A DNA stretch of 64,000 nucleotides. It comes from Myxococcota bacterium (GTDB taxonomy: Bacteria; Myxococcota_A; UBA796; CAJQPC01). Numbering within the stretch: position 1 is the first letter of the stretch; every line of letters starts with the position of its first letter. This document shows, one piece after another, positions 19,499 to 37,633 of this stretch. The notes beneath the pieces were generated by a model that saw nothing but the letters and a program-made list of their open reading frames with translations, made no database searches and was not told the origin of the DNA. The translations under genes and the position numbers were made by a program. The stretch lies in contig DASCPX010000129.1 of the NCBI GenBank assembly GCA_036012755.1, positions 192,001 to 256,000 of the forward strand, written 5' to 3'.

Positions 19499-20314
19499 AT
19501 GTTCGCCCTCATCCTGGCTTGTGGTCCCAAGAACGTCTCGGAGCTCGACACCGGTCCGACCGCTGGCTGGCACGTCGAGGAGGGCTGGGGCGGGAGCTGC
19601 TTCCTGCCCCCCGACTTCGAGACCATCGAAGACGCGGAGCTGCGCCAGAAGATGCAGCGCGACACCCTCGCGGCGATGTCGCTCCAGTGGGAGGGGAGTC
19701 GCCGCGACGGCATCCGCTTCGACCCGGATCTGTCGGACGAGGTCGCCGCCTACCTCGAGCCGCACCTCGACCGGGTCCAGGGGGTCGCGGACCAGAACCA
19801 CGCTCACTGCGTGGAGGTGATGGACCAGGGCGCGACGACCTCGGCGTGGGGGCTGTGGCTGGAGGAGCTGCACGAAGACCTCTCGGAAGAGGCTTGCCCG
19901 ACGCCGCTGTCCGACAACTTCCACACGCTCGACATCCGCACCGGCTGGCAGGCCGACGTCGAGATCTGCGCGGGCACCTCCTATGTCGTGCGGGGAGCGG
20001 TCGGTGAGCAGTTTCGGCTCTCGGCGGAGGGGGCGCTCATCACGCTCGCTGGCGACCCGGACAACCTCCCACCGGAGGGCGCCTTCTGCCGCGAGGTCGC
20101 CGGCTGTGCCTGGGGAATGCTCGTCGGCCGCTTCGAGGGAGAGGACGGGAGCGTAGAGGTCTTCCCGATCGGCACGGAGAAGACCCGCACGGCGGCGGTC
20201 GCCGGGACGCTGTCCATCGCGATCAACGACGACGATCACCACGACAACGCCTGGCAGATCGTCGATGGAGTGCAAGACGGGGTGACGCTGGAGATCCGCC
20301 CGGCTCGGGACTGA
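19499..20314 (+). CDS. Lipoprotein with C-terminal PA-IL/LecA-like beta-sandwich
   Basis: MFALILAC start. The C-terminal pattern is TGWQ...GMLVGRF...VFPIG...GTLSIAINDDDHHDN. Confidence 0.55.
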   Translation: MFALILACGPKNVSELDTGPTAGWHVEEGWGGSCFLPPDFETIEDAELRQKMQRDTLAAMSLQWEGSRRDGIRFDPDLSDEVAAYLEPHLDRVQGVADQNHAHCVEVMDQGATTSAWGLWLEELHEDLSEEACPTPLSDNFHTLDIRTGWQADVEICAGTSYVVRGAVGEQFRLSAEGALITLAGDPDNLPPEGAFCREVAGCAWGMLVGRFEGEDGSVEVFPIGTEKTRTAAVAGTLSIAINDDDHHDNAWQIVDGVQDGVTLEIRPARD

Positions 20315-23570: not shown

Positions 23571-25400
23571 ATGAGCGACCAGCAGGATCCTGCCCTCGAA
23601 GAAGAGGAAGAAGAGACCAATCTCGTCAGCCACGAGGACTACATCCTCAGGGCGGAACGCAGCGTTGGTACCTCCAAGGCGGGCAAGGCGGCGAACGGTG
23701 CGGTCCTGGCGCTGGCGCGGGCCGCGCGGAGCTTCCTGCTCTACGACGCCAGGAACGCCGCCATTCGCGCCTTCCTCGACGACTTCCAGAAGCGCATGGA
23801 CCATTTCTTCGCCCACCACGGCGAGATGTCCCTTCAGATCCGCCCTTTCGAGATGGTGCTCGAAGGAGGCGAGGTCATCTACGTCGAGCGTGACCGCACC
23901 CGCAGCCTTGCCTTCCGGCTCTTCCGCGACGGTGTCCGCAACCTCGTCATCGAGGCGACGGTCAACTGGGACGAGCTGCTTCGCCTGCTGGAGATCCTGT
24001 CCATTCGCTACACGGGGATCCGCTCCCAGGAGGACGACATCGTCACGCTCCTGTGGAAGGCCGCGTTCCAGAACATCCGGATCCAGGCGGTCGAGGGCGT
24101 CATGCTCGACGAGGAGGAAGAGCGCGTGGCCGAGGGGGGCTACGGCGGCTACGGCGGCGCCTACGCTGGCGACGGAGACGCGGAGGCCCAGGACGGTGAG
24201 TACACGGGCCCTGCTCGCCGGATCAGCGCCCAGTTCGACGCCCCCCGCGACAGGGACCGACCGCTCCCCCGACTCGGGGAGTCCAGGGAGCTGCGGTATG
24301 CGCCGCTGACCCGCGGCCAGGTCGACATGCTCAGGGCGGAGCTCGACACGCAGGACCTCGCATTCGCCAGCCTCACGCTGGTCGAGCGCCTGCTGCACCT
24401 CGTCAACGACCCCGTCGACCCGATGGTGTTCGAGGACGTCCGCCACTTCGTCATCGAGCTCCGAGTCTTCCTCATGGCCGAGGAGCAGCTCGGCTCGCTC
24501 GTGACGCTCATCGACCTCGTCGCCTCCGTCGAGGACGCAGACCCGGACGCCATCCGACCGATCCTCGCCGGCTTCGTCGACGCCCACGCCATCCGCCGCA
24601 TCCTGAAGTCGATCCAGCACACGCACTCCCAGCCGCCCGACGAGCTCCTCCACCTCCTGGACCTCGTCGAGGGCAACCACCTCGACACCTTCATCGAGCT
24701 CGTCGAGGTCGAACGCGGCGCGGCCCCTCGGCGCATCGCTCGCCAGCTGGTCGAGCGCTACATCCCCGGGAACGAGGACTACGCCATCCAGCGCATGCTC
24801 GCAGCCAGCGACCCGGGCGTCATGCGCGACCTGCTGCGCGCCTGCGCCCACGCGGTGCCGGAGCGAACCCTGGAAGCGGCAGAGGCCCTCGCCGCCACCG
24901 GCGAGCCGGACGTGCTCCGCGAGCTCCTCTATTTCCTGCAGCACATCCCCTCGAGCCACGACGCCTCCGCCGCGCTGTTGAACCTGCTGAACTGCGGCGT
25001 CAGCGAGGTCCGCACCGCCGCCATCGACGAGCTCGGTCAGCGCGAGCACACCCAGGTGCGCCCGCTCATCACCCACCTGACCGAGCACAGGCCGCTACCG
25101 AACGAGGAAGCGGAGGCCTTGGGCCTGGCCATCGCCCGCCTCGATCCGCGCCTCGCCCAGGTCCGCTTCCGCGAGTGGATCCGTCCGGGCGGCTTCTTCG
25201 CCCGCTTCTTCGCCGGCTCGGGTGACGTGACGCTCCAGTTCGCTGCCGCCGCGGGGCTCGAGCTCCTCGACGAAGAGGGGGACGACGCCCTGCTCGAGTG
25301 GCTTGGCAAGCGAGCTGGAGACGATCTCTACCGTCGCTGCAAGGCGAGCATCGTTCGTCGCAGGCAGCGGCGCCGCGGAGGGGCCGCAGCCCATGTCTGA
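23571..25400 (+). CDS. HEAT-repeat protein (partner of the HD-domain protein)
   Basis: The N-terminal region (LYDARNAAI, SLAFRLFRDGVR) is typical of HEAT/HD pairs, followed by an acidic linker and C-terminal HEAT-like repeats. Confidence 0.7.
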   Translation: MSDQQDPALEEEEEETNLVSHEDYILRAERSVGTSKAGKAANGAVLALARAARSFLLYDARNAAIRAFLDDFQKRMDHFFAHHGEMSLQIRPFEMVLEGGEVIYVERDRTRSLAFRLFRDGVRNLVIEATVNWDELLRLLEILSIRYTGIRSQEDDIVTLLWKAAFQNIRIQAVEGVMLDEEEERVAEGGYGGYGGAYAGDGDAEAQDGEYTGPARRISAQFDAPRDRDRPLPRLGESRELRYAPLTRGQVDMLRAELDTQDLAFASLTLVERLLHLVNDPVDPMVFEDVRHFVIELRVFLMAEEQLGSLVTLIDLVASVEDADPDAIRPILAGFVDAHAIRRILKSIQHTHSQPPDELLHLLDLVEGNHLDTFIELVEVERGAAPRRIARQLVERYIPGNEDYAIQRMLAASDPGVMRDLLRACAHAVPERTLEAAEALAATGEPDVLRELLYFLQHIPSSHDASAALLNLLNCGVSEVRTAAIDELGQREHTQVRPLITHLTEHRPLPNEEAEALGLAIARLDPRLAQVRFREWIRPGGFFARFFAGSGDVTLQFAAAAGLELLDEEGDDALLEWLGKRAGDDLYRRCKASIVRRRQRRRGGAAAHV

Positions 25401-26769
25401 CGACCAGATCGCCAAGGCGCAGGAGCGCCTCGGCAAGACGATGCACAAGGCCCGGGCCGGAGAAGACCGCGAGATCGCGCGTTGGATCCGGGAGGACGGA
25501 CTGCGCTTCGCCCAGGTGCTGACGGGCCTGCTCCGCCTCATCCGCATCCACGACCTGAAGAACGCCGCCTTCGACACCCCGGTCAAGCAGTTCATCGGCG
25601 CCAATCGCATGATCTACGAGCGCCTCGGGGCCATCCACCTCGTCGCGGTCGAGGACCAGGTCTACATCAACGACATCCGCCTCCGCTTCGAGGATCGTGG
25701 CGAGGGCCCCTCGCTCGCCCAGCTCATGCGTGTCCACGCGGTCGGCGGCATCTCCTGCCACTCCGTGCTGACCGACGCAGAGGTCCGGGAGTTCGTCTGG
25801 TGCTTCGCTCAGAAGCCCGCAGAGGACTTCCCACGCCAGGCGATGAGCAAGCTCCTGGAAGAGAGGGGGCTCAGCACGGTGCAGGTCTTCGGTGTCTTCC
25901 GCTTCAGGTTGGCCGGAGAGGACCACCAGGTCCGCCAGGTGTCTGGCGAAGTCATCCTGGAGCGCACGCGGGGCGCCGTTGCAGAGGCCTGGAACAACAT
26001 GGGCCACGGGCGGCTCCCCAACCCCCTGCCCTTGCGCCGCGCCGTCACCGAGATCCTAGAGCGCGGTGTCGCGGGCGAGGACCTCTGGGAGGAGGCCAAG
26101 ACCGCGGACCGTCATGGCGCCCACAGCACCCGTGTCTCCCGCCTGGCGCTGCTCATCGGCACGGGGCTCGGCCTCTCCGAGGCTCAGCTGCAGGACCTTG
26201 GAGTCGCGGCGATCTTCCACGACATCGGCTACGCCGCGCGAGAGGGCGTCGACGAGGCCAACAACGAGCCGGGCTATGCACCGCCCTTCGAGCGCCACGG
26301 CTCGGCGGGGGCTCGCCTCCTGCTGAGGCAACGAGGCTTCCACGAGGCCCGGATCCACCGCCTCCTCGCGGTCCTGGAGCACCACGAGGACTACGACAGT
26401 CGGGCAGGAAAGCCCTCGCTGTTCGGCCGTATCCTCCGCGTCGCAGAAGACTACGACAACCTCACCTACAGCGAGGAGTGCCGCTACTGTCCAGCCATGG
26501 CGCTGGCGTACATGGCGGGCAAGTCCGGGCGTGACTACGACCCCTTGCTGCTCCAGATGCTCATCAACGCGGTGGGCTGCTACCCGCCGGGCACGCTGTT
26601 GCGACTCGCCGATGGACGCGAGGTTCGCAGCGACAGCCTCGTGCGAAGCCCCGCCAGCTTCAACAAGCCTCTGTGCGTCGTGACCCGACTGGCCTCCGGA
26701 CAGGAGGCCGCCGGACGCCTCGAGGTCGACCTCGCCAACGAGGGCGAAGTCCTCCACGTCGTCGTCTGA
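25393..26769 (+). CDS. HD-GYP-like phosphohydrolase
   Basis: HSTRV, FHDIG, EHHE, RILRVAEDYD and YPPGT motifs. The GYP loop is degenerate. Confidence 0.8.
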   Translation: MSDDQIAKAQERLGKTMHKARAGEDREIARWIREDGLRFAQVLTGLLRLIRIHDLKNAAFDTPVKQFIGANRMIYERLGAIHLVAVEDQVYINDIRLRFEDRGEGPSLAQLMRVHAVGGISCHSVLTDAEVREFVWCFAQKPAEDFPRQAMSKLLEERGLSTVQVFGVFRFRLAGEDHQVRQVSGEVILERTRGAVAEAWNNMGHGRLPNPLPLRRAVTEILERGVAGEDLWEEAKTADRHGAHSTRVSRLALLIGTGLGLSEAQLQDLGVAAIFHDIGYAAREGVDEANNEPGYAPPFERHGSAGARLLLRQRGFHEARIHRLLAVLEHHEDYDSRAGKPSLFGRILRVAEDYDNLTYSEECRYCPAMALAYMAGKSGRDYDPLLLQMLINAVGCYPPGTLLRLADGREVRSDSLVRSPASFNKPLCVVTRLASGQEAAGRLEVDLANEGEVLHVVV

Positions 26770-26779
26770 GGTCCGCTCC

Positions 26780-27046
26780 TCAGAAGCCCGGGTCGCAGTC
26801 GTCGCAGCGGCTGCCGCAGGAGTCGTCGTAGAGCTGGTCGCTCACCTGGAGTCCGCCGCCTGCGCAGTTGTCCTCTGCCAACACGCGGCACTCGTTGTCG
26901 CTGGCAGCCACGACCCAGCCACTGGTCTCCCCGTCGTCGCAGGCGTAGTAGCAGCAGCCGCTCGCGCCGGAATCGCCGCTGTCGAGCGGGGGAACGGGGC
27001 AGGCCGCAAGCCCCAGGAGCGCAGTTGTCGCAAGGCAGATCCGCAT
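26780..27046 (-). CDS. Small Cys-rich lipoprotein
   Basis: GGAGGA RBS and LAAC lipobox, followed by 8 further Cys (GCCYYAC...C...C...C.. .CDDC). Confidence 0.7.
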   Translation of the reverse strand: MRICLATTALLGLAACPVPPLDSGDSGASGCCYYACDDGETSGWVVAASDNECRVLAEDNCAGGGLQVSDQLYDDSCGSRCDDCDPGF

Positions 27047-27072
27047 CGAGTCCTCCAACCACAGCTATAGCT

Positions 27073-27102
27073 TTGACGGCTGCGCCCCGCAGCGGGTAGC
27101 GT
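27073..27102 (+). promoter_or_regulatory. Possible sigma70-type promoter of the CCCC-YYY operon
   Basis: TTGACG-N18-TAGCGT upstream of a GAGGAG RBS and ATG 27129. Confidence 0.3.
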
Positions 27103-27128
27103 CCGGCGGGAAGCAGAGGAGTACCCCG

Positions 27129-27431
27129 ATGCGGTGGATTGCAGTGCTGTGGACGCTGTGCTTTCTCGCGTTGGGAACACCCGCCTTCGCCTCCGTGTCC
27201 GGGACGCCTTCGAGCGTGCTGTACACCCCGCTGGTCGTGGAGGCTCCGCTGGTCTCCGAGGACGAGTTGCCTGACGACACGCCGATCCCTGGCGAGCGGG
27301 ACCCGGTGACGCGTCAGGACAACATGAACAAGGCCATCATCATCGCGATCATCATCGCGGAGTTCGCGCTGGTGGCCAGCTTCGGCGCTCTCATCTGCTG
27401 CTGCTGTCTCTACATGGGCTATTACTACTGA
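27129..27431 (+). CDS. Small type I membrane protein with TM-CCCC-YYY tail, paralog 1
   Basis: Signal peptide (PAFA|S), LVVEAPLVSEDELP, TM helix, then ICCCCLYMGYYY*. Confidence 0.85.
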   Translation: MRWIAVLWTLCFLALGTPAFASVSGTPSSVLYTPLVVEAPLVSEDELPDDTPIPGERDPVTRQDNMNKAIIIAIIIAEFALVASFGALICCCCLYMGYYY

Positions 27432-27757
27432 TGATCTACGCAATTCGCGCTGTCGCTCTCGCTCTCGCGTTCCTTGCTCTCGTGCCGGTGACCGCGTCGG
27501 CGAGCATCGCCGCTACAGAGGTCGCCGCAACAGGGGTCGCCAGCGTCGAGGCCACGCTGGTCGTGGACGCCCCCATGCTCGAGGACGGAGAGGTCCCGGG
27601 CGAGGAAGAGCCCCTCCCGGGCGAGGAAGGCAGCTCCTGGTTCAAGGACCACAAGGTCCTCGTCATCGTCCTGGGGATCTCGGCCGGCGTCCTGCTCATC
27701 GGCACGACGCTGCTCTGCTGTTGCTGCCTTGGCGGCGGCACGTCGTACTACTACTGA
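27431..27757 (+). CDS. Small type I membrane protein with TM-CCCC-YYY tail, paralog 2
   Basis: TGATG coupling, TASA|S, LVVDAPMLEDGEVPGEEEPLPG, TM helix, then LCCCCLGGGTSYYY*. Confidence 0.85.
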   Translation: MIYAIRAVALALAFLALVPVTASASIAATEVAATGVASVEATLVVDAPMLEDGEVPGEEEPLPGEEGSSWFKDHKVLVIVLGISAGVLLIGTTLLCCCCLGGGTSYYY

Positions 27758-28053
27758 TGAGCCGCGCCCTCCGGCTGTTGGTCCTGGCGCTGGCCTGCCT
27801 GCTGCTGGTCCCCGCCACCGCCTCGGCCAGCTTCGACCGCGCAGAGGTCGTGAGCCAGGACGCTTCGCTGGTCGTCGAGGCGCCGGTGCTCGAAGACGAC
27901 GAGCTCCCGGGCGAGAACGAGCCCCTCCCCGACGGGGAGAGCTCGAACAAGACCCTGATCATCGTGCTCGTGCTCGTCGGAGCGGCGCTCGTGTTGGCGG
28001 CCGGGGCGGTCGTGATCTGCTGCTGTTGCTTCGGCAGCTACTACTACTACTGA
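27757..28053 (+). CDS. Small type I membrane protein with TM-CCCC-YYYY tail, paralog 3
   Basis: TGATG coupling, TASA|S, LVVEAPVLEDDELPGENEPLPD, TM helix, then ICCCCFGSYYYY*. Confidence 0.85.
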   Translation: MSRALRLLVLALACLLLVPATASASFDRAEVVSQDASLVVEAPVLEDDELPGENEPLPDGESSNKTLIIVLVLVGAALVLAAGAVVICCCCFGSYYYY

Positions 28054-28854
28054 GTGCTGCTGCTCGCGCTTCCGTTGGGCTGGCAATGGCTCGGCGAGGG
28101 TCAGCTGGAAGACCTCGTGCCGGGTCAGACGGGCGCCGCCGCGAGGTCCGCCGAGATGGCGCTGGTGACCAGGGAGGAGCCAGCCGCGCCCCACATCGCA
28201 GCCGTGGACCCGTTCACCGCTCAGCAGGTCCAGGACGTCGACGGCTTCATCAGCGGCGAGACGCTCCTGTCCCGGCAACGCCAGAAGGCTGGCGACACCG
28301 TGAAGACGCTCTACCAGGGGGCTTCTGACCACCCCAGCGTCTCACGCTGGGTCCACATCACGCCCAGCACCGGGCTGGTCTGGTGGCGGCTGGCCTGGCG
28401 GCAGGGCGACCAGCTGCAGCAGGTGATGGCCTGGGCACCTGCGGATGAGCTCGACGTCCTCGCGGCGGCGATGATGGAGCTCGAGGAGGGCACTGCCTGG
28501 AGCCCCAGTCCCCCGATGCTGCTGGTCGCCGCCGGCACCTGCGACGAGACCGCGACCGTCTCCCGCAACAGCATGATCGAGGCCAGCGCCCGGCACGAAG
28601 ACGCCCTGGCGGCCATCGCGCGGCGAGAGGGCGACATGCGCCTCCACCTCGCCGGGCGGGCGATCCTCAGCCGCTCCGCCGAGTCCTGCCTCACAGAGGT
28701 GGCCCCGAAGATGGGGGTCTGCCGCGTCTACGCGGGCGAGGCGATCACCGAGCGCGACCGGGACATCGAGGGCGAGGTGGCGCGCTGCATGGACAAGCGA
28801 GAGAAGCTCCCCGTGAAGCTCGCCGAGCGCCTCGACACGGTCGCCGCGTGGTGA
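28054..28854 (+). CDS. Hypothetical protein
   Basis: The GTG start directly follows the previous stop. 266 aa with host-like codon usage; I recognise no family. Confidence 0.65.
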   Translation: MLLLALPLGWQWLGEGQLEDLVPGQTGAAARSAEMALVTREEPAAPHIAAVDPFTAQQVQDVDGFISGETLLSRQRQKAGDTVKTLYQGASDHPSVSRWVHITPSTGLVWWRLAWRQGDQLQQVMAWAPADELDVLAAAMMELEEGTAWSPSPPMLLVAAGTCDETATVSRNSMIEASARHEDALAAIARREGDMRLHLAGRAILSRSAESCLTEVAPKMGVCRVYAGEAITERDRDIEGEVARCMDKREKLPVKLAERLDTVAAW

Positions 28855-29207
28855 TGTGGCTGCTGACCGGGCTCGCTTTCGCAGAGGTGCCCCAGTGCAC
28901 CGAGCTCTCCAGGCCCTACCCCTCTCGCCAGTCCGAGCGGGTCGGCACGGCCCGCAACGCGGCCTACCTGGCGCTTCGTGCCTGGCAGATCATCGTCGCC
29001 CCTGCAGACGGGGCGGGCTGCACGATGTACCCGAGCTGCTCTCGCTACGCGATGTTCGCCGTCGCTCAGGAGGGACCCGTTCGCGGGACCTTCATGGCCA
29101 CGGCTCGGGTCGTCCGGCACCACAAGGACCCCGGCTACCCGCGCTGCCGGGTCGGCGAGCGGGTCTATGTCTATGCACCGGTCGAGGCGGACAGCTGGTG
29201 GGACTGA
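28854..29207 (+). CDS. YidD-like (membrane protein insertion efficiency factor / haemolytic domain) protein
   Basis: WQIIVAP...CTMYPSCSRYA..AV...GPVRG....ARVVR signature, with an N-terminal leader MWLLTGLAFA. Confidence 0.75.
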   Translation: MWLLTGLAFAEVPQCTELSRPYPSRQSERVGTARNAAYLALRAWQIIVAPADGAGCTMYPSCSRYAMFAVAQEGPVRGTFMATARVVRHHKDPGYPRCRVGERVYVYAPVEADSWWD

Positions 29208-29950
29208 CCGCGCTGATCTGGGTCGGCGGGGCTTCCGCTGGCGAGCTCGACGAGCGCCTCGTGGACATGGGCATGGTCGAGCAGGCATACGCCGGCGCCC
29301 TCCTCGACGCCGCGGCGGCCCCGCCAGAGGAGCGTCTCGCCGCGGAGCTCCACGCAGGCAGCCTGTTGTGGGAGGCCGAGCGCTGGGACCTCGCGGCGAT
29401 CCACTTCCGCGCGGTCCCCGACGCGCGGCTGGCCTACGGCTACTCGCTCTACAAGGAGGGTCAGCACGGCGCGGCGCTGCTCGCCGTAGAGGGTCTGGAC
29501 GAGGGCCACGAGCTGGCGGGCTTCGCGGCCCTGCACCTCGACGACGTAGAAGGCGCCTTGCAGCACTGGCAGCTCGCAGGAGCCACCTCCGCGATGACCG
29601 AGGTCCAGGGGTGGGGTGAGCTCCCTCACCGTCGACCCGGTGTCGCGGCTGGTCTCAGCGCTGTGTTGCCCGGGGCTGGCCAGGCCTACGTCGGCCGCTG
29701 GGGCGAGGCGGGCAGCGCCTTGATCGTGAACACCATGCTCATCGGGAGCACGGCAGCTCTGTTGCGCCGAGAGGAGTACTTCGCCGGTGTCAGCGTCGGG
29801 CTGTTGGCCCTGTCCTTCTACGGCGGCAACATCATGAGCGCCCGCTGGGGCGCACACCGCTTCAACCGCCGGGCCCGGGAGGAGCGGCTGGAGGCCCTGG
29901 GCGGTCTCGAGCCCCGCTATCGCATCGAGGACGGCGAGCTCATCCGCTGA
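29198..29950 (+). CDS. TPR plus TM2-like membrane protein
   Basis: TPR-like helices, then PGVAAGLSAVLPGAGQAYVG and FYGGNIMSARWGAHRFN. Start probably GTG 29198. Confidence 0.7.
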   Translation: MGLTALIWVGGASAGELDERLVDMGMVEQAYAGALLDAAAAPPEERLAAELHAGSLLWEAERWDLAAIHFRAVPDARLAYGYSLYKEGQHGAALLAVEGLDEGHELAGFAALHLDDVEGALQHWQLAGATSAMTEVQGWGELPHRRPGVAAGLSAVLPGAGQAYVGRWGEAGSALIVNTMLIGSTAALLRREEYFAGVSVGLLALSFYGGNIMSARWGAHRFNRRAREERLEALGGLEPRYRIEDGELIR

Positions 29951-30001: not shown

Positions 30002-32482
30002 TCAGTCCTCCCAGGCCGACGAGTGTCCAGCATCGGGCTCGGTGACCGTCGTGTCTCCGCTCGGGTAGGCCGTGCCATCCAGCTCGTCGTAGTCGAGCCG
30101 GATGCGCCCGTCGCCGCCGTCGCCGCCGTATGCCGAGCCGTAGGGGCAGCCGCTGTGCCAGCAGCTCGTGCCTCCCGAGCCGCCGATCGCCGAGATGGTC
30201 CCGCCGAGGCTCAGATCCGGTGAAGCCAGCCAGACCTGGCCGCCGCTTCCGGCACCTCCTCCTCCGACCTCGCCCTCCAGCGAGGTGGCGTCCCCGCCGT
30301 CGGCGCCGTCCGCCAGGATCGAGCCCGAGACGTCCAGCGACGTGCCCGCCCAGATCGCCACGAGTCCGCCTCCGTCGCCGCCGTCCCCGGTCACGTTGGT
30401 GCTCGAGGTCCCGTCGCTTTCGGTGTCCGGGGAGCCGCCGCCACCGCCGGAGCCGAGGTACCACTCGGACAGCTCGGTGTCGCCGTAGGTGTCGCCAGGG
30501 TCGCAGACCTCTGAGCCGGAGTAGCTCGTGCCTGCGGTTCCGGAGTCGCCGTAGCTGCCGCCTCCCCCGGAGTCACCGTTGTCGCCTCGCCGGGGGTAGC
30601 TGCCGCCGCCACCCTCGTTCGCGGTGGTGGTTCCAGAGGATCCCTCTGCGTTCCAGCTCTCGCCCTGGTCCGGGTCGGAGCTGTTGCTCGTGACGCCATC
30701 GCCGCCTCGATAGCCCCGCTCGCCGAGGTCGATCGTGCCGGTGATGTCGACGTCTCCGGTAGCCCGAAAGACCACGACACCGCCGCCGCCCCCGGCCCAG
30801 TCGTCGGCGTCGATCGTCGCCCCGGAGGACAAGGTGAAGTCGTCGTAGTGGGGCACGCGCTGCACCAGGACCACGCTCGAGCTGGAGTAGTCGTCCTCCA
30901 GCGCCGGCTCGATGGTCAGGGTGTTCGAGCTGACGCTGTCCACGTAGACGAACTGCCGGGTGCCGGCGTCCTCGCCCTGCTGGCTCAGGACCAGGACCTC
31001 GTCGCCGCTGGCGAAGGGCGTGCCGTCATCGACCTCGATCGAGGTGTCCTCGGCCGTCGCGCCACCGTCGAGCAGGGCCCAGTCCGCCCAGGTCTCATCG
31101 GAGGTGACCGAGCCGGTGCCGTCGCCGCCGAGTCCCTCGTTCGGACCGCGAACCACGCTGTCGTCGTACTCGTCGGCGTCCCAGTCGTTGCGCAGCCCGT
31201 CCCCGTCGATGTCGTCGTCGTCGCAGTCCTGGGTCCCGTCGGAGTCCGTGTCGGTGGCGTCCGTGTCGTCGCAGTCGTCCGAGTTCTCCACGTAGCCGCT
31301 GGGCTGCTCGCAGGTCTCGACCGAGGAGTCGGGGTCGCCCAGACCGTCGCCGTCGGTGTCCGCGTAGTACGTCGCGCTCGAGGGCCCGTCGCTGTCGTCG
31401 TCGTCGATGTCCCCGTCGCAGTCGTCGTCGATGTCGTTGCAGATCTCCTCTGCGTCCGGGTTCACGTCCTCGTCGAGGTCGTCGCAGTCGTCGCTGTCCG
31501 AGATGTAGCCGCTGGGCTGCTCGCAGCTGGCGATGGTCCAGTCCGCGTCGCCGAAGCCGTCGCTGTCGTGGTCGAGGTACCAGGTCGTGTCGGGGTTCAG
31601 CGATGCGTCTGTGTCGTCGCAGTCGTCGTCGTTGTCGACCGTGCCGCTCGGTTGGGAGCAGCTCTCGGTGCTCGAGTCCGGGTCGCCGTAGCCGTCGGTG
31701 TCCGCGTCCGTGTACCAGGTCCCGGCGTCGACGGCGTCGTCCTCGTCGACCGCGTCGTCGCAGTCGTCGTCGATCTCGTTGCAGACCTCCGTCGCGTTTG
31801 GCGAGACCTGGGCGTCTGTGTCGTCGCAGTCGTTGTCGTTGTCCGAGTAGCCGGTGGGGAGATCACAGCCCTCTGTGCTGCTGTCAGGGTCGCCGTGCCC
31901 GTCTCCGTCGGTGTCGGCCCAGTAGATGGACTGGACACCCTCGTCGACCTCGCCGTTGCAGTCGTTGTCCGCCTCGTCGCAGACCTCTTCGGCGCCCGGG
32001 TAGGCGCTGGCGTCCGTGTCGTCGCAGTCGGTGGCGTCGTCGACGTAGCCGTTGGCTCCATCGCAGCTCTGGCTCGACACCGACGCATCCCCGAAGCCGT
32101 CCCGATCCACGTCCGCGTACCAGAGGTCGCCCACCGCGTCGTCTTCCTCGCCGTTGCAGTCGTTGTCGAGGCCGTCGCAGACCTCTGTGGCGTCCGGGTT
32201 GGTGGCGGCGTCGAGGTCGTCACAGTCATCGGCTTCGAGGAAGCCGTCGCCGTCGAGGTCGTCGTCCGGTGTGGTCTCGTCGCAGTCGTCGTCGAGGCCG
32301 TTGTAGGGGATCTCGGAGGCCCCCGGGTAGACCGCCGAGTTCGTGTCGTCGCAGTCGTCTTCCTCGTAGAAGCCGTCGCCGTCCGCGTCGACCGGGGCGT
32401 CACCGGTGTCCTCTGGGATGATCCCGGAGTCGGGGTCGGAGTCCTTGTTGCGGCAGGCGAGGCAGAGCAGGACGAGCAGCAT
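30002..32482 (-). CDS. MopE-like repeat lipoprotein with C-terminal glycine-rich domain
   Basis: MLLVLLCLAC start and DCDD/DDDCDG repeats. The C-terminal domain has VQRVPHY, GGVVVFRATG and several GGGG runs. Confidence 0.8.
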   Translation of the reverse strand: MLLVLLCLACRNKDSDPDSGIIPEDTGDAPVDADGDGFYEEDDCDDTNSAVYPGASEIPYNGLDDDCDETTPDDDLDGDGFLEADDCDDLDAATNPDATEVCDGLDNDCNGEEDDAVGDLWYADVDRDGFGDASVSSQSCDGANGYVDDATDCDDTDASAYPGAEEVCDEADNDCNGEVDEGVQSIYWADTDGDGHGDPDSSTEGCDLPTGYSDNDNDCDDTDAQVSPNATEVCNEIDDDCDDAVDEDDAVDAGTWYTDADTDGYGDPDSSTESCSQPSGTVDNDDDCDDTDASLNPDTTWYLDHDSDGFGDADWTIASCEQPSGYISDSDDCDDLDEDVNPDAEEICNDIDDDCDGDIDDDDSDGPSSATYYADTDGDGLGDPDSSVETCEQPSGYVENSDDCDDTDATDTDSDGTQDCDDDDIDGDGLRNDWDADEYDDSVVRGPNEGLGGDGTGSVTSDETWADWALLDGGATAEDTSIEVDDGTPFASGDEVLVLSQQGEDAGTRQFVYVDSVSSNTLTIEPALEDDYSSSSVVLVQRVPHYDDFTLSSGATIDADDWAGGGGGVVVFRATGDVDITGTIDLGERGYRGGDGVTSNSSDPDQGESWNAEGSSGTTTANEGGGGSYPRRGDNGDSGGGGSYGDSGTAGTSYSGSEVCDPGDTYGDTELSEWYLGSGGGGGSPDTESDGTSSTNVTGDGGDGGGLVAIWAGTSLDVSGSILADGADGGDATSLEGEVGGGGAGSGGQVWLASPDLSLGGTISAIGGSGGTSCWHSGCPYGSAYGGDGGDGRIRLDYDELDGTAYPSGDTTVTEPDAGHSSAWED

Positions 32483-32498: not shown

Positions 32499-34034
32499 TC
32501 AGGGCGTATCGGAGACCTGGTCGTAGTCGTCGTCGCCCCAGCACTTCAGCTCTCCTCCGGTCGTGATGGCGCAGCTGTGGTCGTCACCCGAGCAGACCGA
32601 GGTGAAGCTGCCAGAGGGAGCGTCGGAGACCTGGTCGTAGTCGTCGTCCCCCCAGCAATCCAGCGTGCCGGTTCCGGAGACCGCGCAGCTGTGGTCGTCG
32701 CCGGCTGCGATGGACACCCAGCCCTTGGAGCTCGGCGCGCCGTCGATGCCAGCGCCGATGCCGAAGCACTCGACGGCGCCGTCGGTCTTCAGGGCGCAGG
32801 CGTGCAGGCCGCCGCCGACCGAGATCGCCTGGTAGGTCCCGGAGGGTGGCTCCGGGTCGCTCGTGCCCCAGCAGACCAGCTCCTGGTCGTCGTCGATGGC
32901 GCAGGCGAAGTAGAAGCCCACGCCCACCTTCTCGAAGCTCCCCGAGGGCTCGTAGGTGATGCCGTATTCGCTGACACCCCAGCACTTCAGATCGCCGTCG
33001 TCGTCGAGAACGCAGCCGTTGGCGTAGGTGCCGACGGCCACCTGCGCGTAGGTCCCCGAGGGGGCGCTCTCCATGCCGCCGACCGAGGCGCCCCAGCAAT
33101 CCAGGGCGTCGGAGCTGTCGAGCACGCAGTCGAAGTAGCCCCCTGACGCCAGCTGGTTCACCGGGTCCGACGGGGGGCTGCCGATGCCGTCGTAGCCCCA
33201 GCAGTGGACCTTGCCCGAGGACTTCAGCGCGCAGTTGTGATCGTCGTCGCCGCAGGACACGGCGCGCCAGCCGCAGCCGTCCCCGTAGGGGAACAGCTCG
33301 TCGTCGTCGTCGTCGCAGTCGGTGCCGGCCTCGACGCCGCTGCGCGGGCGGTCCGAGCCGTAGCCGTCTCCATCGGCGTCGGTCATGCAAGCCGTGGCGC
33401 TGTCCTCTTCCGCGGCCCCTGGCGCGGTCCGGCGGTCCCCATCGTCGCAGTCCCCGTCGCAGGAGCTGATCCCGTCGCCGTCCTCGTCGAGCTGTCCCAG
33501 ATCCGGGTCCTCGTCGTCGCAGTCGTCGTCGGTCGTCGTGCCGTCGCAGTCGGCGTCCTCTGCCAGCGCCGTCGACTCGGGGTCGTAGTCGTCGCAGTCC
33601 TCGGCCGTCAGGAGCCCATCGCAGTCCATGTCGGCGGCCTGGTCTCCGAGCTCGGGGTCGTAGTCGTCACAGTCCGCGTCCGCGAGTACGCCGTCGCAGT
33701 CCTGGTCGTTCTCGGGATCGGTCACGTCGGGATCGTCGTCGTCGCAGTCGCCTTCGCAGGTGGTGAGGCCGTCTGCGTCCAGGTCGTCGTGGTTGAGCGA
33801 GGCGTCTTCGTCGTCGCAGTCGTCGCCGCCGCTCCAGTCCGAGGCCCAGCCGTCCCCGTCTCCGTCGAAGCCGTCGACGCCGTCGCAGTTCTGGTCGATG
33901 GCGTCGCCCACCACGTCGGTGGCCTCTGGGTTGATCGCCCCGTTGTCGTCGTTGCAGTCGCCCTGCCGGATCGTGAAGCCGTCGGCATCGGCGTCGAGGG
34001 GTGTCCCGCCCCAGCAGGCCAAGAGGAGTAGCAT
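32499..34034 (-). CDS. MopE-like repeat lipoprotein with RCC1-like repeats
   Basis: MLLLLAC start and DCDD repeats. C-terminal repeats of the form G..HSCA...G.L.CWG. Confidence 0.85.
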   Translation of the reverse strand: MLLLLACWGGTPLDADADGFTIRQGDCNDDNGAINPEATDVVGDAIDQNCDGVDGFDGDGDGWASDWSGGDDCDDEDASLNHDDLDADGLTTCEGDCDDDDPDVTDPENDQDCDGVLADADCDDYDPELGDQAADMDCDGLLTAEDCDDYDPESTALAEDADCDGTTTDDDCDDEDPDLGQLDEDGDGISSCDGDCDDGDRRTAPGAAEEDSATACMTDADGDGYGSDRPRSGVEAGTDCDDDDDELFPYGDGCGWRAVSCGDDDHNCALKSSGKVHCWGYDGIGSPPSDPVNQLASGGYFDCVLDSSDALDCWGASVGGMESAPSGTYAQVAVGTYANGCVLDDDGDLKCWGVSEYGITYEPSGSFEKVGVGFYFACAIDDDQELVCWGTSDPEPPSGTYQAISVGGGLHACALKTDGAVECFGIGAGIDGAPSSKGWVSIAAGDDHSCAVSGTGTLDCWGDDDYDQVSDAPSGSFTSVCSGDDHSCAITTGGELKCWGDDDYDQVSDTP

Positions 34035-34143
34035 CGCCTGCGATTGTATCTGCGGCGGGGCTGCGGCTCGCCTGAGCCGAACCCAACGTTGACGTCCTCG
34101 AACACGACATTAAGTGGCCCCCCCATTCCACGGAGGTACCGCG

Positions 34144-35079
34144 ATGATCGAGGTCTCCAGCCTCACCCGCTACTACGGCACCCACGCCGCGGTGAAGGAC
34201 GCCAGCTTCACGATCGCCGACAACGAGATCGTGGGTTTCCTCGGCCTCAATGGCGCGGGCAAGTCGACGACGCTGAAGGTGCTGGCGGGGCTGCTGTTGC
34301 CCTCCAGCGGCAGCGTGAAGATCGACGGCGTCGACATCGTGCAGGCTCCGGACTCGATGCGGAGCCGGATCGGCTTCCTGCCGGAAGACACGCCCCTGTA
34401 CATGGACATGCGGGTCGAGGACTTCGTCTCCTACGCCGGGGAGCTCAAGGGCCTGTCCGCGGCGGAGGTGGCCAGTCGCCTCGACGGGGTGCTCGCTCAC
34501 ACCGGTCTGACCGTGCGCCGGCGCCAGGTGATCAGCGAGCTGTCCCATGGCTTCCGCAAGCGCGTGGGCATCGCCCAGGCCGTCATCCACGGCCCCAGGC
34601 TGGTCATCCTCGACGAGCCGATCTCTGGCCTCGATCCCAAGCAGATCCGAGAGATTCGCGAGGTCATCGTGGGCCTCAAGGAGTCCTGCACGGTCCTGAT
34701 CTCCAGCCACATCCTCTCGGAGATCAGCCAGACCTGTGACCGCATCCTGGTCCTGAACGAGGGTCGCCTCATCGCAGAGGGCACAGAGGACGAGCTCGCC
34801 TCTCGCACCGCCGCGGGCAGCCGCATCGAGCTGGAGATCCGGGGCGAGCGGGCCGCGGTCGAGGCAGTCCTCAGAGGCCACGCCGCGGTCCAGAACCTCA
34901 GCGTCACCGGTGACGCCGGCGGCATCGTCTCCTTGCGCGTCACGCTCGAGGCGGACGAAGAGCGGGAGTCCCTCGTCGCCCACATCGTCAGCTCCGGCCT
35001 GGGTCTGCGCCGCATCGACGAGGACGCCGGCGAGCTCGAAGACATCTTCCTGAACATCACTTCCGCGGGGGCCGCATGA
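34144..35079 (+). CDS. ABC transporter ATP-binding protein (GldA-like)
   Basis: GLNGAGKST, LSHGFRKRVG, ILDEP and SSH motifs, with a GGAGG RBS. Confidence 0.92.
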   Translation: MIEVSSLTRYYGTHAAVKDASFTIADNEIVGFLGLNGAGKSTTLKVLAGLLLPSSGSVKIDGVDIVQAPDSMRSRIGFLPEDTPLYMDMRVEDFVSYAGELKGLSAAEVASRLDGVLAHTGLTVRRRQVISELSHGFRKRVGIAQAVIHGPRLVILDEPISGLDPKQIREIREVIVGLKESCTVLISSHILSEISQTCDRILVLNEGRLIAEGTEDELASRTAAGSRIELEIRGERAAVEAVLRGHAAVQNLSVTGDAGGIVSLRVTLEADEERESLVAHIVSSGLGLRRIDEDAGELEDIFLNITSAGAA

Positions 35080-35801
35080 GAGGCCTGTTCCTCGTCGCCA
35101 GGAGGGAGCTCGGCTCCTACCTCAACGGCTACTGGGGCTTCCTGATCGTCTCGGTCCTGCTCTTCGGGCAGGGGCTCATCTTCAATGCCTTCGCCCTCGG
35201 CTCGACCCCCCGGGTGAGCTCTGACGTGCTCGAGGACTTCTTCTACCTCAGCTTCGGCTTCACCGTGGCCGCCGCCGTGCTGCTCACGATGCGGCTCGTC
35301 GCCGAGGAGCAGCAGACCGGCACGATCGTGCTCATCGACTCCAGCCCGCTCTCGGACTGGCAGGTGGTCGGCGGCAAGTACCTCTCCGCCGTGCTCGTCA
35401 TCGCGGTCATGCTGGCGCTGTCCGCCTACATGCCGGCGCTGATCTTCGTCAACGGCAAGGTCAGCCTCGGGCACATCGGCGCCGGCTACCTCGGCGTGCT
35501 GCTCGCCGGCTCGGCGACCGCCGCCATCGGCACCTTCACCTCCAGCATCACCCGCTACCAGATCGTCGCCGCCATCCTGGGCGGAGTCATCGTCTTCGTC
35601 TTCCTCCTTGCCTGGCTGCTCGGGCGCGTGACGGACCCGCCGATCGACGACATCTGGTCCTACATGAGCCTCTTCGACCGGCACTTCCAGCCCTTCATGC
35701 GGGGCCGGATCAACGTCGAGGACATCGTCTTCTACGTATCGGTGAGCTTCGTGTTCCTCTTGCTCTCGACTCGCTTGATGAGCGCGAGGAGGTGGCGATG
35801 A
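35076..35801 (+). CDS. ABC-2 permease (GldF-like)
   Basis: ARRELGSY, LTMRLVAEE..TGT and GKYL motifs, about 6 TM segments. Confidence 0.88.
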   Translation: MRGLFLVARRELGSYLNGYWGFLIVSVLLFGQGLIFNAFALGSTPRVSSDVLEDFFYLSFGFTVAAAVLLTMRLVAEEQQTGTIVLIDSSPLSDWQVVGGKYLSAVLVIAVMLALSAYMPALIFVNGKVSLGHIGAGYLGVLLAGSATAAIGTFTSSITRYQIVAAILGGVIVFVFLLAWLLGRVTDPPIDDIWSYMSLFDRHFQPFMRGRINVEDIVFYVSVSFVFLLLSTRLMSARRWR

Positions 35802-37633
35802 GCCCCTCCTTCATCCTGACGCTCGTCGGCCTGGCCGGCCTCTACGCTGGCCAGCGTCTGTTCTCGGGCGACGATTCCATGGAGATGGCCTTCACCGGAC
35901 TCGGCGGGCTGCTGCTGGTCCTTGGCCTCTTCTTCCGTTTCAAGGCGATGGCTGGCGCGAGCGCGGCCGACATCCGCGGAGCCAACCAGAAGGCCCTGAT
36001 CTTCAACGGCGTCGTTGTCGCCGCGGTCGCCGTCTACGCCCTGTCGACCGACTCCGCGTCCGAGCTCATCGCTCTCGACGACCAGGCAGCCAGCCGCTGG
36101 TCCGTCGCCTGGTCAGCCGTCTGGCCGATCGTGCTGCTCGCGGGTCTGTTCCCGCTCCTGCTCATCGATCTCGCCATCGTCTCGAGCCCCCTGGCCGTGC
36201 AGCCCTTGCGGGTGAAGCAGGCCATCGACAACGGCCTCGTAGGCGCGCTCGGCCTCTGCCTGGTGTTCCCGCTGAACTACCTGGCCACCGAGCACAACGA
36301 GCGCTGGGACCTGGCCTACTTCAAGACCACGGAGGTCGGGGGCTCCAGCCAGGCGCTGGTCACGAACCTCACCGAGCCGGTCACGGCGCGCATCTTCCTG
36401 CCCACCTCCTCCGACGTGCGCAGCGAGCTCGTTCCCTACTTCGAGGAGCTGGAGGCCGCGAACCCGGCGATGTTCCGGGTCGAGGTGCTCGACCACGCCG
36501 CCGAGCCGGTCCTGGCCAAGGAGCTCAAGATCCGCGACAACGGCTACGTCGCGCTGACCCTGAACGACGGGACCGACGACGCGGTCACGAAGTCCTGGAA
36601 GATCGGCGACGAGCTCGACCGCGCCAAGCGCAACCTGAAGAAGCTGGACCAGGAGTTCCAGAAGCGCCTGCTCGACCTGGCGAAGGGTGAGCGCAAGGCC
36701 TACTTCACCGTCGGCCACGGCGAGTTCAACTGGAAGTCCGGTGACCTGCCGGACGACAAGCTGGTCAACCTCAAGAAGCTCCTCCAGACGCTGAACTTCG
36801 ACGTGAAGGAGCTCGGCTTGAAGGATGGGCTGGGCGACGAGATCCCGGACGACGCCACGGTGGTCTTCGTGGTCGGTCCGGAGGAGCCCTTTCTCCCCGC
36901 CGAGAACGAGGCGCTGAAGGCCTACATCGACGGCGGCGGCGCCCTCGTCGTGGCTGTCGAGCCCGGTCGCGACCCGATGGTCGAGGTGCTCGGCCATGTC
37001 GGCGTGAAGGCTGCGGAGGGCACCCTCGCCAGCGAGGCCCAGTTCCTGCGGCGCTCGGGTGACAAGTCCGACCGCATGAACATCGTCACGAATCGCTACT
37101 CCTCGCACGAGTCGACGACCACGCTCTCCAAGTACAGCCGCCAGCTCCACCTCGTCACGCCGGGAGCCGGCTACCTCGAGGAGTCCGGCGGCGGCCGCGG
37201 CAAGGTCACTGTCACGGTGCGCTCGGACAGCACGACCTGGGCGGACCTCGACGGCGGCCTGGAGTACGACGCCGAGACCGAGAAGAAGGACGTCCGCGCC
37301 CTCGCCATGGCCGCCAGCGGTCCTGCGGGCACCGACGACGAGGGCAACCCGACCGAGTACCGGGTGCTGGTGACCTCTGACGCGACGATGTTCTCGGACC
37401 TCATCCTGGCCAACAAGGCCAACCTCCAGTTCGTCTACGACGCCGCCAACTGGGTGATGGGTGAGGAGGAGCTCTCAGGCACCGTGGAGAATGAAGAGGA
37501 CATCAAGATCGAGCACACCCAGGAAGACCAGGCGATCTGGTTCTACAGCACGGTCATGGGCCTCCCCCTCATCATCCTGATGCTCGGCGCCGTGCGAGTC
37601 CGCCGTCGCCGCAGCGCCGGAGGTGCAGCATGA
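35798..37633 (+). CDS. GldG-family ABC auxiliary component
   Basis: N-terminal TM segments, RWDL, YFTVGHGE, YIDGGG and a C-terminal TM followed by RRRR. Confidence 0.85.
   Translation: MSPSFILTLVGLAGLYAGQRLFSGDDSMEMAFTGLGGLLLVLGLFFRFKAMAGASAADIRGANQKALIFNGVVVAAVAVYALSTDSASELIALDDQAASRWSVAWSAVWPIVLLAGLFPLLLIDLAIVSSPLAVQPLRVKQAIDNGLVGALGLCLVFPLNYLATEHNERWDLAYFKTTEVGGSSQALVTNLTEPVTARIFLPTSSDVRSELVPYFEELEAANPAMFRVEVLDHAAEPVLAKELKIRDNGYVALTLNDGTDDAVTKSWKIGDELDRAKRNLKKLDQEFQKRLLDLAKGERKAYFTVGHGEFNWKSGDLPDDKLVNLKKLLQTLNFDVKELGLKDGLGDEIPDDATVVFVVGPEEPFLPAENEALKAYIDGGGALVVAVEPGRDPMVEVLGHVGVKAAEGTLASEAQFLRRSGDKSDRMNIVTNRYSSHESTTTLSKYSRQLHLVTPGAGYLEESGGGRGKVTVTVRSDSTTWADLDGGLEYDAETEKKDVRALAMAASGPAGTDDEGNPTEYRVLVTSDATMFSDLILANKANLQFVYDAANWVMGEEELSGTVENEEDIKIEHTQEDQAIWFYSTVMGLPLIILMLGAVRVRRRRSAGGAA

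Follow-up and report, generated by a model that had tools for sequence, protein, structure and literature searches.

Secreted mini-proteins with a cysteine/tyrosine C-terminal tail and a conserved PsbP/DcrB-fold neighbour in uncultured Myxococcota

Three short open reading frames stand in tandem in a 64,000-nucleotide stretch of a Myxococcota bacterium assembly (contig DASCPX010000129.1; this whole stretch is referred to as the window), and each encodes a small protein that ends in a hydrophobic helix, a run of cysteines and a run of tyrosines (Table 1). The locus raises the question of whether such a tail is a genuine protein feature, how widely it is kept among related bacteria, and what it may do in the cell envelope.

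Table 1. Coordinates of the mini-protein genes and of the genes that follow them in the window.
Feature	Position	Strand	Description
GAGGAG ribosome-binding site	27110..27128	+	5' of mini-protein 1; read directly
Mini-protein 1, 100 aa	27129..27431	+	Signal peptide, acidic Pro-rich spacer, hydrophobic helix, CCCC, terminal YYY
Mini-protein 2, 108 aa	27431..27757	+	Architecture as mini-protein 1; TGATG-coupled
Mini-protein 3, 98 aa	27757..28053	+	Architecture as mini-protein 1; ends in YYYY
Secreted partner, 266 aa	28054..28854	+	Mog1p/PsbP/DcrB/Eag-type fold (residues 1-151) and helical C-terminal part
YidD paralogue	28854..29207	+	PF01809/TIGR00278 above cut-off; short signal-like N-terminus; alternative GTG start 28848
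Secreted TPR protein with C-terminal hydrophobic hairpin	29198..29950	+	DUF5683 match weak, below cut-off

The three reading frames were found where the original prediction had placed them and with the architecture it had described. They are joined by TGATG stop/start overlaps, and all three were called by a codon-bias gene caller. Each N-terminus is hydrophobic and ends, as judged by eye, in AxA|S; the acidic spacer carries the motif LVV[ED]AP...[DG]E.P...P[LI]P, and a linker of 3-6 residues separates CCCC from the final three or four Tyr. Mini-proteins 2 and 3 share 43-44% identity with the first copy, and the three appear to be tandem duplicates within a duplicated operon. A promoter scan of the locus returned no sigma-70 site. 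Positions 26700-28577 are covered by one metagenome contig, with a synonymous Leu codon in the first reading frame as the single difference; the run behind this contig was not flagged as the source, and three flagged runs belong to its study. The runs containing window DNA are marine or seawater metagenomes, and no RNA run was listed among the 20. The mini-protein genes are poorly covered in three of four DNA runs, and a depth spike at 27954-28067 consists of short TAC-repeat contigs.

A small Cys-rich lipoprotein gene without a Pfam match (26780-27046, -) is divergent from the mini-protein genes, and each of the other two genomes of the genus has a homologue at the equivalent place. Upstream of the locus, 23571-26769 (+) holds a HEAT-repeat gene and an HD-domain (HD-GYP-like) gene, and at least the latter is syntenic across the three genomes of the genus. 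The lineage often uses very short signal peptides (about 8-10 residues), in lipoproteins and non-lipoproteins, as at 19499, 30002-32482 and 32499-34034 of the window and in many loci.

The three reading frames belong to a so far undescribed family of small secreted proteins. For none of them did a Pfam or NCBIfam match exceed its cut-off, in line with the earlier statement that they resemble no characterised family; over 38 members, Pfam gave isolated weak matches to four families (one member each) and NCBIfam to two (one or two members). The model of mini-protein 3 has a disordered spacer and one continuous helix at residues 62-97 (mean pLDDT 74.5). Foldseek returned no matches to the mini-protein model, a PDB sequence search found a designed helical repeat as its sole match, and an Atlas search with mini-protein 3 gave no usable feature match. 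The literature searched, which was mostly open-access, yielded no description of the family or of the operon. A 38-row profile matched 15 of the 154 genomes of the order, namely the host genome (G000) and 14 of the other 21 in its family, with none in the six other families; weak matches (E > 1e-5, in G016, G053, G022, G433 and others) were excluded from these counts. Furthermore, an 18-row profile run against 1.84 billion representatives gave 22 matches, all with the mini-protein architecture, one of which stops before the end of the tail. Two mini-protein homologues are labelled as other proteobacterial, and a homologue of the partner encoded downstream is labelled 'Myxococcota bacterium'; the assignment to the phylum is based on the latter label together with gene content.

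Across these homologues the tail is strikingly uniform. All 41 distinct tails, taken from 46 proteins, end in Tyr and have at least two Cys within the last 20 residues, and none has K or R within the last 25 (P0004, P0009 and P0041 were excluded here as apparently truncated; P0041 has a single Cys). CC is found in 38 of the 41 and CCCC in 12. The family-wide signature is an uncharged C-terminal helix, about 32 residues long, that has at least two Cys, a terminal Tyr and no basic residue. CCCC, which had been taken for the conserved unit, marks one subclade, and it is CC with the terminal Tyr that runs through the family. The claim that selection acts on real genes is supported, and the Cys/Tyr tail is kept in homologues elsewhere, in the 14 other family genomes. 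The profile favours Cys/Tyr tails, and a search anchored on the partner found such tails independently. Within the host genome (6.7 Mb), the pattern CC.{0,10}YY ends only five of 95,444 stop-to-stop segments of at least 30 aa in six frames, and all five are family members: the three of the window and paralogues on contigs C138 and C14.

In a tree built from the last 62 residues, on 69 columns only, a Cys-expanded clade of 14 rows separates from a CC clade of 24 rows with support of 100/100. The former includes the window's three copies and the copy on C138; the latter includes the copy on C14 and often has a GxxxGxxxG pattern, which we take to be a glycine zipper and which occurs in 11 of 23 genomic tails. 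The tail helix is strongly hydrophobic (19-residue Kyte-Doolittle mean 2.0-3.0), and the uncharged tail measures 30-40 residues in most members, longer than one membrane span. The second mini-protein gene on contig C703 of G001 (L005 1722-2140) is frameshifted in the assembly, by error or as a pseudogene.

Stand-alone mini-proteins are the majority of members, and the tail is also portable, having been fused independently to two unrelated secreted domains. The 268-aa protein on C138 and its relative P0022 carry the complete spacer-helix-CCCC-YY module after a YajG-like domain (an assignment from a weak PF03923 match, below cut-off), and in G021 a homologue of that domain stands alone without the tail. 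In all four g7 genomes the module lies at the end of a 270-aa secreted protein, and the G000 homologue of this g7 domain has a different hydrophobic tail (E 2.4e-31). Because it has been joined to two domains independently, the tail would behave as an anchor or a sorting tag, and the earlier idea of a sorting signal or anchor gains support from these fusions to folded secreted domains.

The genes downstream of the mini-proteins had escaped the original prediction, which missed both an invariant partner with a PsbP/DcrB-type fold and the YidD-like/TPR pair behind it. The partner has four conserved Cys and begins with a GTG start immediately after the mini-protein stop. In its model (pLDDT 94), residues 1-151 resemble PsbP, Salmonella DcrB, EagT6 and SciW at Z 10.8-12.8 (rmsd 2.4-3.6 Å over 108-131 residues, identity 8-11%), and the T6SS immunity proteins TplEi and Tsi3 are neighbours at lower Z (6.6-8.1). 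Against Pfam, including the DcrB/DUF1795 model, no family was matched at E 0.1. Homologues of the partner occur in 18 of 151 genomes of the order, and its profile matched 11 of 401 genomes of the phylum, one of them weakly and unconvincingly. The 17 family loci were located through the partner, not through the tail (two of their contigs end early), and in all 17 a tail-bearing gene lies directly 5' of the partner. The mini-protein family and the partner co-occur in the same 14 of 21 other family genomes; in G001, the mini-protein copy adjoining the partner is frameshifted in the assembly and retains its tail.

The mini-protein locus is mostly single, syntenic and conserved across five genera. 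A gene for a small lipoprotein that distantly resembles the partner (hhalign probability 79.6%) is found in 13 of the 17 loci, as is a gene for a membrane-anchored sulfatase-like protein whose nucleophile position is occupied by Thr. The copy of the operon in the window is a second one, in which the mini-protein gene has been tripled and the lipoprotein and sulfatase-like genes are absent. At two partner loci of family f3 the upstream gene encodes a single-helix mini-protein lacking Cys/Tyr, and at one there is none; thus, the partner does not need the Cys/Tyr tail. The f3 mini-proteins (L092 4048-4434 (-) and L093 7311-7700 (-)) have a signal, a spacer, a helix and a conserved acidic tail, and the secreted YidD paralogue was not found in these two genomes. 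Gene order is the sole basis on which the mini-protein may be proposed to bind the partner; complex prediction for the partner with mature mini-protein 3 gave scores of 0.00 and 0.25 against a mark of 0.32.

The CC and YYY runs could be the shadow of a Leu-rich signal peptide in the overlapping -1 frame of the next gene. Cys and Tyr codons do give Leu runs in that frame, and at g7 loci the -1 frame continues into the partner, whose signal peptide it probably encodes. However, the partner lies in frame 0 at 8 of the 17 junctions and the tail is still kept; the codons are the genome-preferred TGC and TAC, while the shadow codon CTA makes up 0.6% of Leu codons; and the C138 fusion has kept its tail where no coupled gene follows. 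The frame-0 loci largely refute the frame-shadow reading, to which we give very little credence, and together with the preferred codons they argue that the tail is selected as protein. Fusion of mini-protein and partner by stop read-through or frameshift was also considered and rejected: their relative frame varies (0 at 8 junctions, -1 at 9), so there is no conserved recoding. In g7 (L017, L018, L020, L026) there appears to be dual coding, with the partner signal peptide encoded in the -1 frame across the last 14 codons of the Cys/Tyr tail.

The YidD-like gene and the TPR-hairpin gene are each found downstream in 12 of the 17 loci. The three g4 loci lack the pair, and another pair is present elsewhere in those genomes. 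The window's YidD paralogue is distinct from the canonical YidD of the genome, which lies on contig C16, and the Atlas neighbours of the TPR-hairpin protein are TPR clusters, some with YfiO. Across the phylum, the TPR-hairpin gene occurs in 33 of 201 genomes, usually with a YidD paralogue; in other families the pair is often standalone, and elsewhere in the phylum it adjoins Bor or PEGA lipoproteins, Lnt or, once, a weak LolA-like gene. TPR look-alikes occur in other diderm phyla. The pair, which recurs in the phylum apart from canonical yidD, is seen for example in the window (28854-29950), in L104 and in L107-L126. One copy of the pair lies directly upstream of lnt in G000 (C67 43811-44954) and in G004, and another setting is beside a radical SAM-DUF2344 gene. 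In two other families (L116 4824-5105 (-) and L121 5575-5874 (-)), a gene convergent to the pair encodes a hydrophobic secreted protein of 93-99 aa that has two Cys and matches no Pfam family. A GldA/F/G-like ABC transporter operon (window 34141-37633 (+); also L101 1-4328) is directly 3' of the TPR gene in G002, with two inserted genes between them in the window. No description of a secreted YidD paralogue paired with a TPR-hairpin protein was found in the literature searched.

Several known systems resemble parts of this locus. In the available text of two sources, Cys-containing CTERM signals consist of a Cys motif, a helix and an Arg cluster (10.1101/2023.06.07.544157; PMC11980579). Like the mini-protein tail, the MYXO-, JDVT-, Synerg- and CGP-CTERM signals are portable C-terminal hydrophobic helices with an invariant Cys on secreted proteins, and MYXO-CTERM is from the same phylum. 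However, the Cys motif of CTERM signals precedes the helix, whereas in the mini-proteins the Cys follow it, 6-11 residues from the C-terminus, and the Arg-rich C-terminal cluster is replaced by an end in Tyr with no K or R (0/41 in the last 25 residues). The mini-protein family is, moreover, mostly stand-alone, has few copies and has a cognate PsbP-fold neighbour. No CPBP/Rce1-like protease was seen among the conserved neighbours of the locus, and no NCBIfam CTERM model matched any of the 38 members at E 0.05. As two of the three CTERM features fail, the mini-proteins are not CTERM members.

Nor are they members of the eukaryotic CYSTM/CYSPD proteins, which are likewise small with a Pro-rich N-terminal part and a C-terminal Cys cluster. 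The mini-proteins differ in having a cleavable signal (by eye) and a true hydrophobic helix before the Cys, and PF22812 matched one of 38 members, at E 0.008 and 17 bits, short of its cut-off of 34.1. PMC8049917 and PMC10840359, in the portions available, place CYSTM proteins in eukaryotes and describe those of yeast as held by palmitoylation. The partner shares its fold with Eag (DUF1795/DcrB) proteins and, like them, is encoded beside a protein with an exposed hydrophobic helix; in contrast to them it is secreted, has an extra helical Cys-containing part and shows 8-11% identity, and no PAAR or T6SS genes are found in the mini-protein locus. E. coli DcrB binds the envelope lipoprotein Lpp, according to the accessible part of PMC13712963. 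Eag and DcrB are best treated as functional analogies for the partner, not as families to which it belongs. Finally, Wzc-type BY-kinases also have several Tyr at the extreme C-terminus (PMC12648545, available text), whereas the mini-proteins have no kinase domain and their Tyr come directly after the membrane helix, within the predicted helix.

The Cys/Tyr tail probably anchors the mini-proteins, and sometimes larger proteins, in the cell envelope. The mini-proteins would be Sec-exported single-pass envelope proteins whose working part is a portable module of a short acidic motif, a spacer, an uncharged helix some 32 residues long, a Cys pair and a Tyr tip. After cleavage of the signal, the helix would anchor the protein in the membrane with its N-terminus outside, and the Tyr tail would hold the far membrane interface in place of the Arg/Lys cluster usual under the positive-inside rule. 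The glycine zipper (the ancestral type) or the expanded Cys cluster (the window's subclade) may pack the helices or cross-link them through metal, lipid or disulfide, and the periplasmic motif may dock the co-translated partner to form a small membrane-tethered envelope complex. We give about an even chance to this full reading, in which a Tyr end replaces the basic tail, a Cys or glycine zipper packs the helices and the motif docks the partner. It is weakened because the tail exceeds one membrane span in most members, because the C138 fusion copy has no partner gene adjoining it, and because the PsbP fold serves many functions. Disulfides fit poorly, as an inner-membrane, N-out topology would put the Cys on the side of the reducing cytoplasm. 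S-palmitoylation is described as essentially absent from bacteria in the available text of PMC5780409.

The same features can be read as an arginine-free sorting signal, with the Eag-like partner as chaperone and the YidD/TPR pair as delivery. The whole helix would then cross the inner membrane and be shielded in the periplasm by the partner, and the YidD paralogue and TPR-hairpin protein would bring about outer-membrane placement or Cys modification, with Tyr as the recognition element. The tail does lack a basic cytoplasmic anchor, in contrast to 35 of the 48 signal-plus-C-terminal-helix proteins of the genome; Eag chaperones, of the same fold as the partner, bind effector transmembrane domains (PMC7773334, as far as its available text goes); and the YidD-like and TPR-hairpin genes follow in most loci and elsewhere keep company with lipoproteins and lipoprotein-type genes, as listed above. 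However, helices of this hydrophobicity normally stop transfer, the g4 loci lack the pair, the pair often stands alone in other families, and there are at most five copies per genome with few passengers, as against the dozens per genome given for MYXO-CTERM in the text available of PMC11980579. We therefore regard the sorting reading as unlikely, and somewhat more so the stronger form in which the operon provides alpha-helical envelope proteins with a route of their own. If true, that route would combine an Eag-like chaperone for helices in the periplasm with a secreted YidD paralogue and a TPR-hairpin protein, and the YidD/TPR pair would be an unrecognised insertion or Cys-modification machine that is widespread in the phylum.

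Two further readings concern what the mini-proteins are rather than where they go, and we hold both to be improbable. As exported membrane-active peptides of the glycine-zipper bacteriocin kind, with the partner as immunity protein or chaperone, they would account for the GxxxGxxxG pattern, the tandem expansion of the genes and the presence of TplEi and Tsi3 among the partner's fold neighbours; yet the locus is mostly one syntenic, conserved copy across five genera, unlike polymorphic toxins, the module is fused to folded domains, and the zipper is lost in the CCCC clade. Alternatively, the acidic motif could be the leader of a Cys/Tyr core peptide, as had been suggested, or the tail could be the substrate of a tyrosine kinase or an alkaline-phosphatase-superfamily enzyme, for which the linked membrane-anchored Thr-nucleophile enzyme is the candidate. 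Short conserved motifs 5' of the tail and the frequency of the sulfatase-like gene speak for such modification. Against it, no RiPP maturase or other RiPP modifying enzyme, protease, peptidase/exporter or kinase is found among the conserved neighbours (partner, YidD-like, TPR-hairpin, small lipoprotein and sulfatase-like genes), the sulfatase-like gene is absent from the locus in the window, and a Sec signal, a membrane-length helix and fusions to folded domains are unlike a leader-core precursor. The leader-core proposal is thus unlikely to hold, and the membrane anchor remains the preferred reading.

As read from sequence, the Cys/Tyr module is a real, undescribed and family-restricted element, a putative C-terminal anchor or sorting tag accompanied by a conserved cognate operon, found in one family of uncultured myxobacteria-like bacteria that are known here from genome assemblies alone. 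The known Cys-containing tags compared here are all built of a motif, a helix and an Arg cluster, whereas the new tail is built of a helix, Cys and Tyr and has a fixed PsbP/DcrB-fold neighbour. The mini-proteins offer a compact, expressible test case for the anchoring of a helix that has no basic tail and for the function of juxtamembrane Cys clusters in bacteria, and the locus points to an unstudied pair of a secreted YidD paralogue and a TPR-hairpin protein across the phylum.
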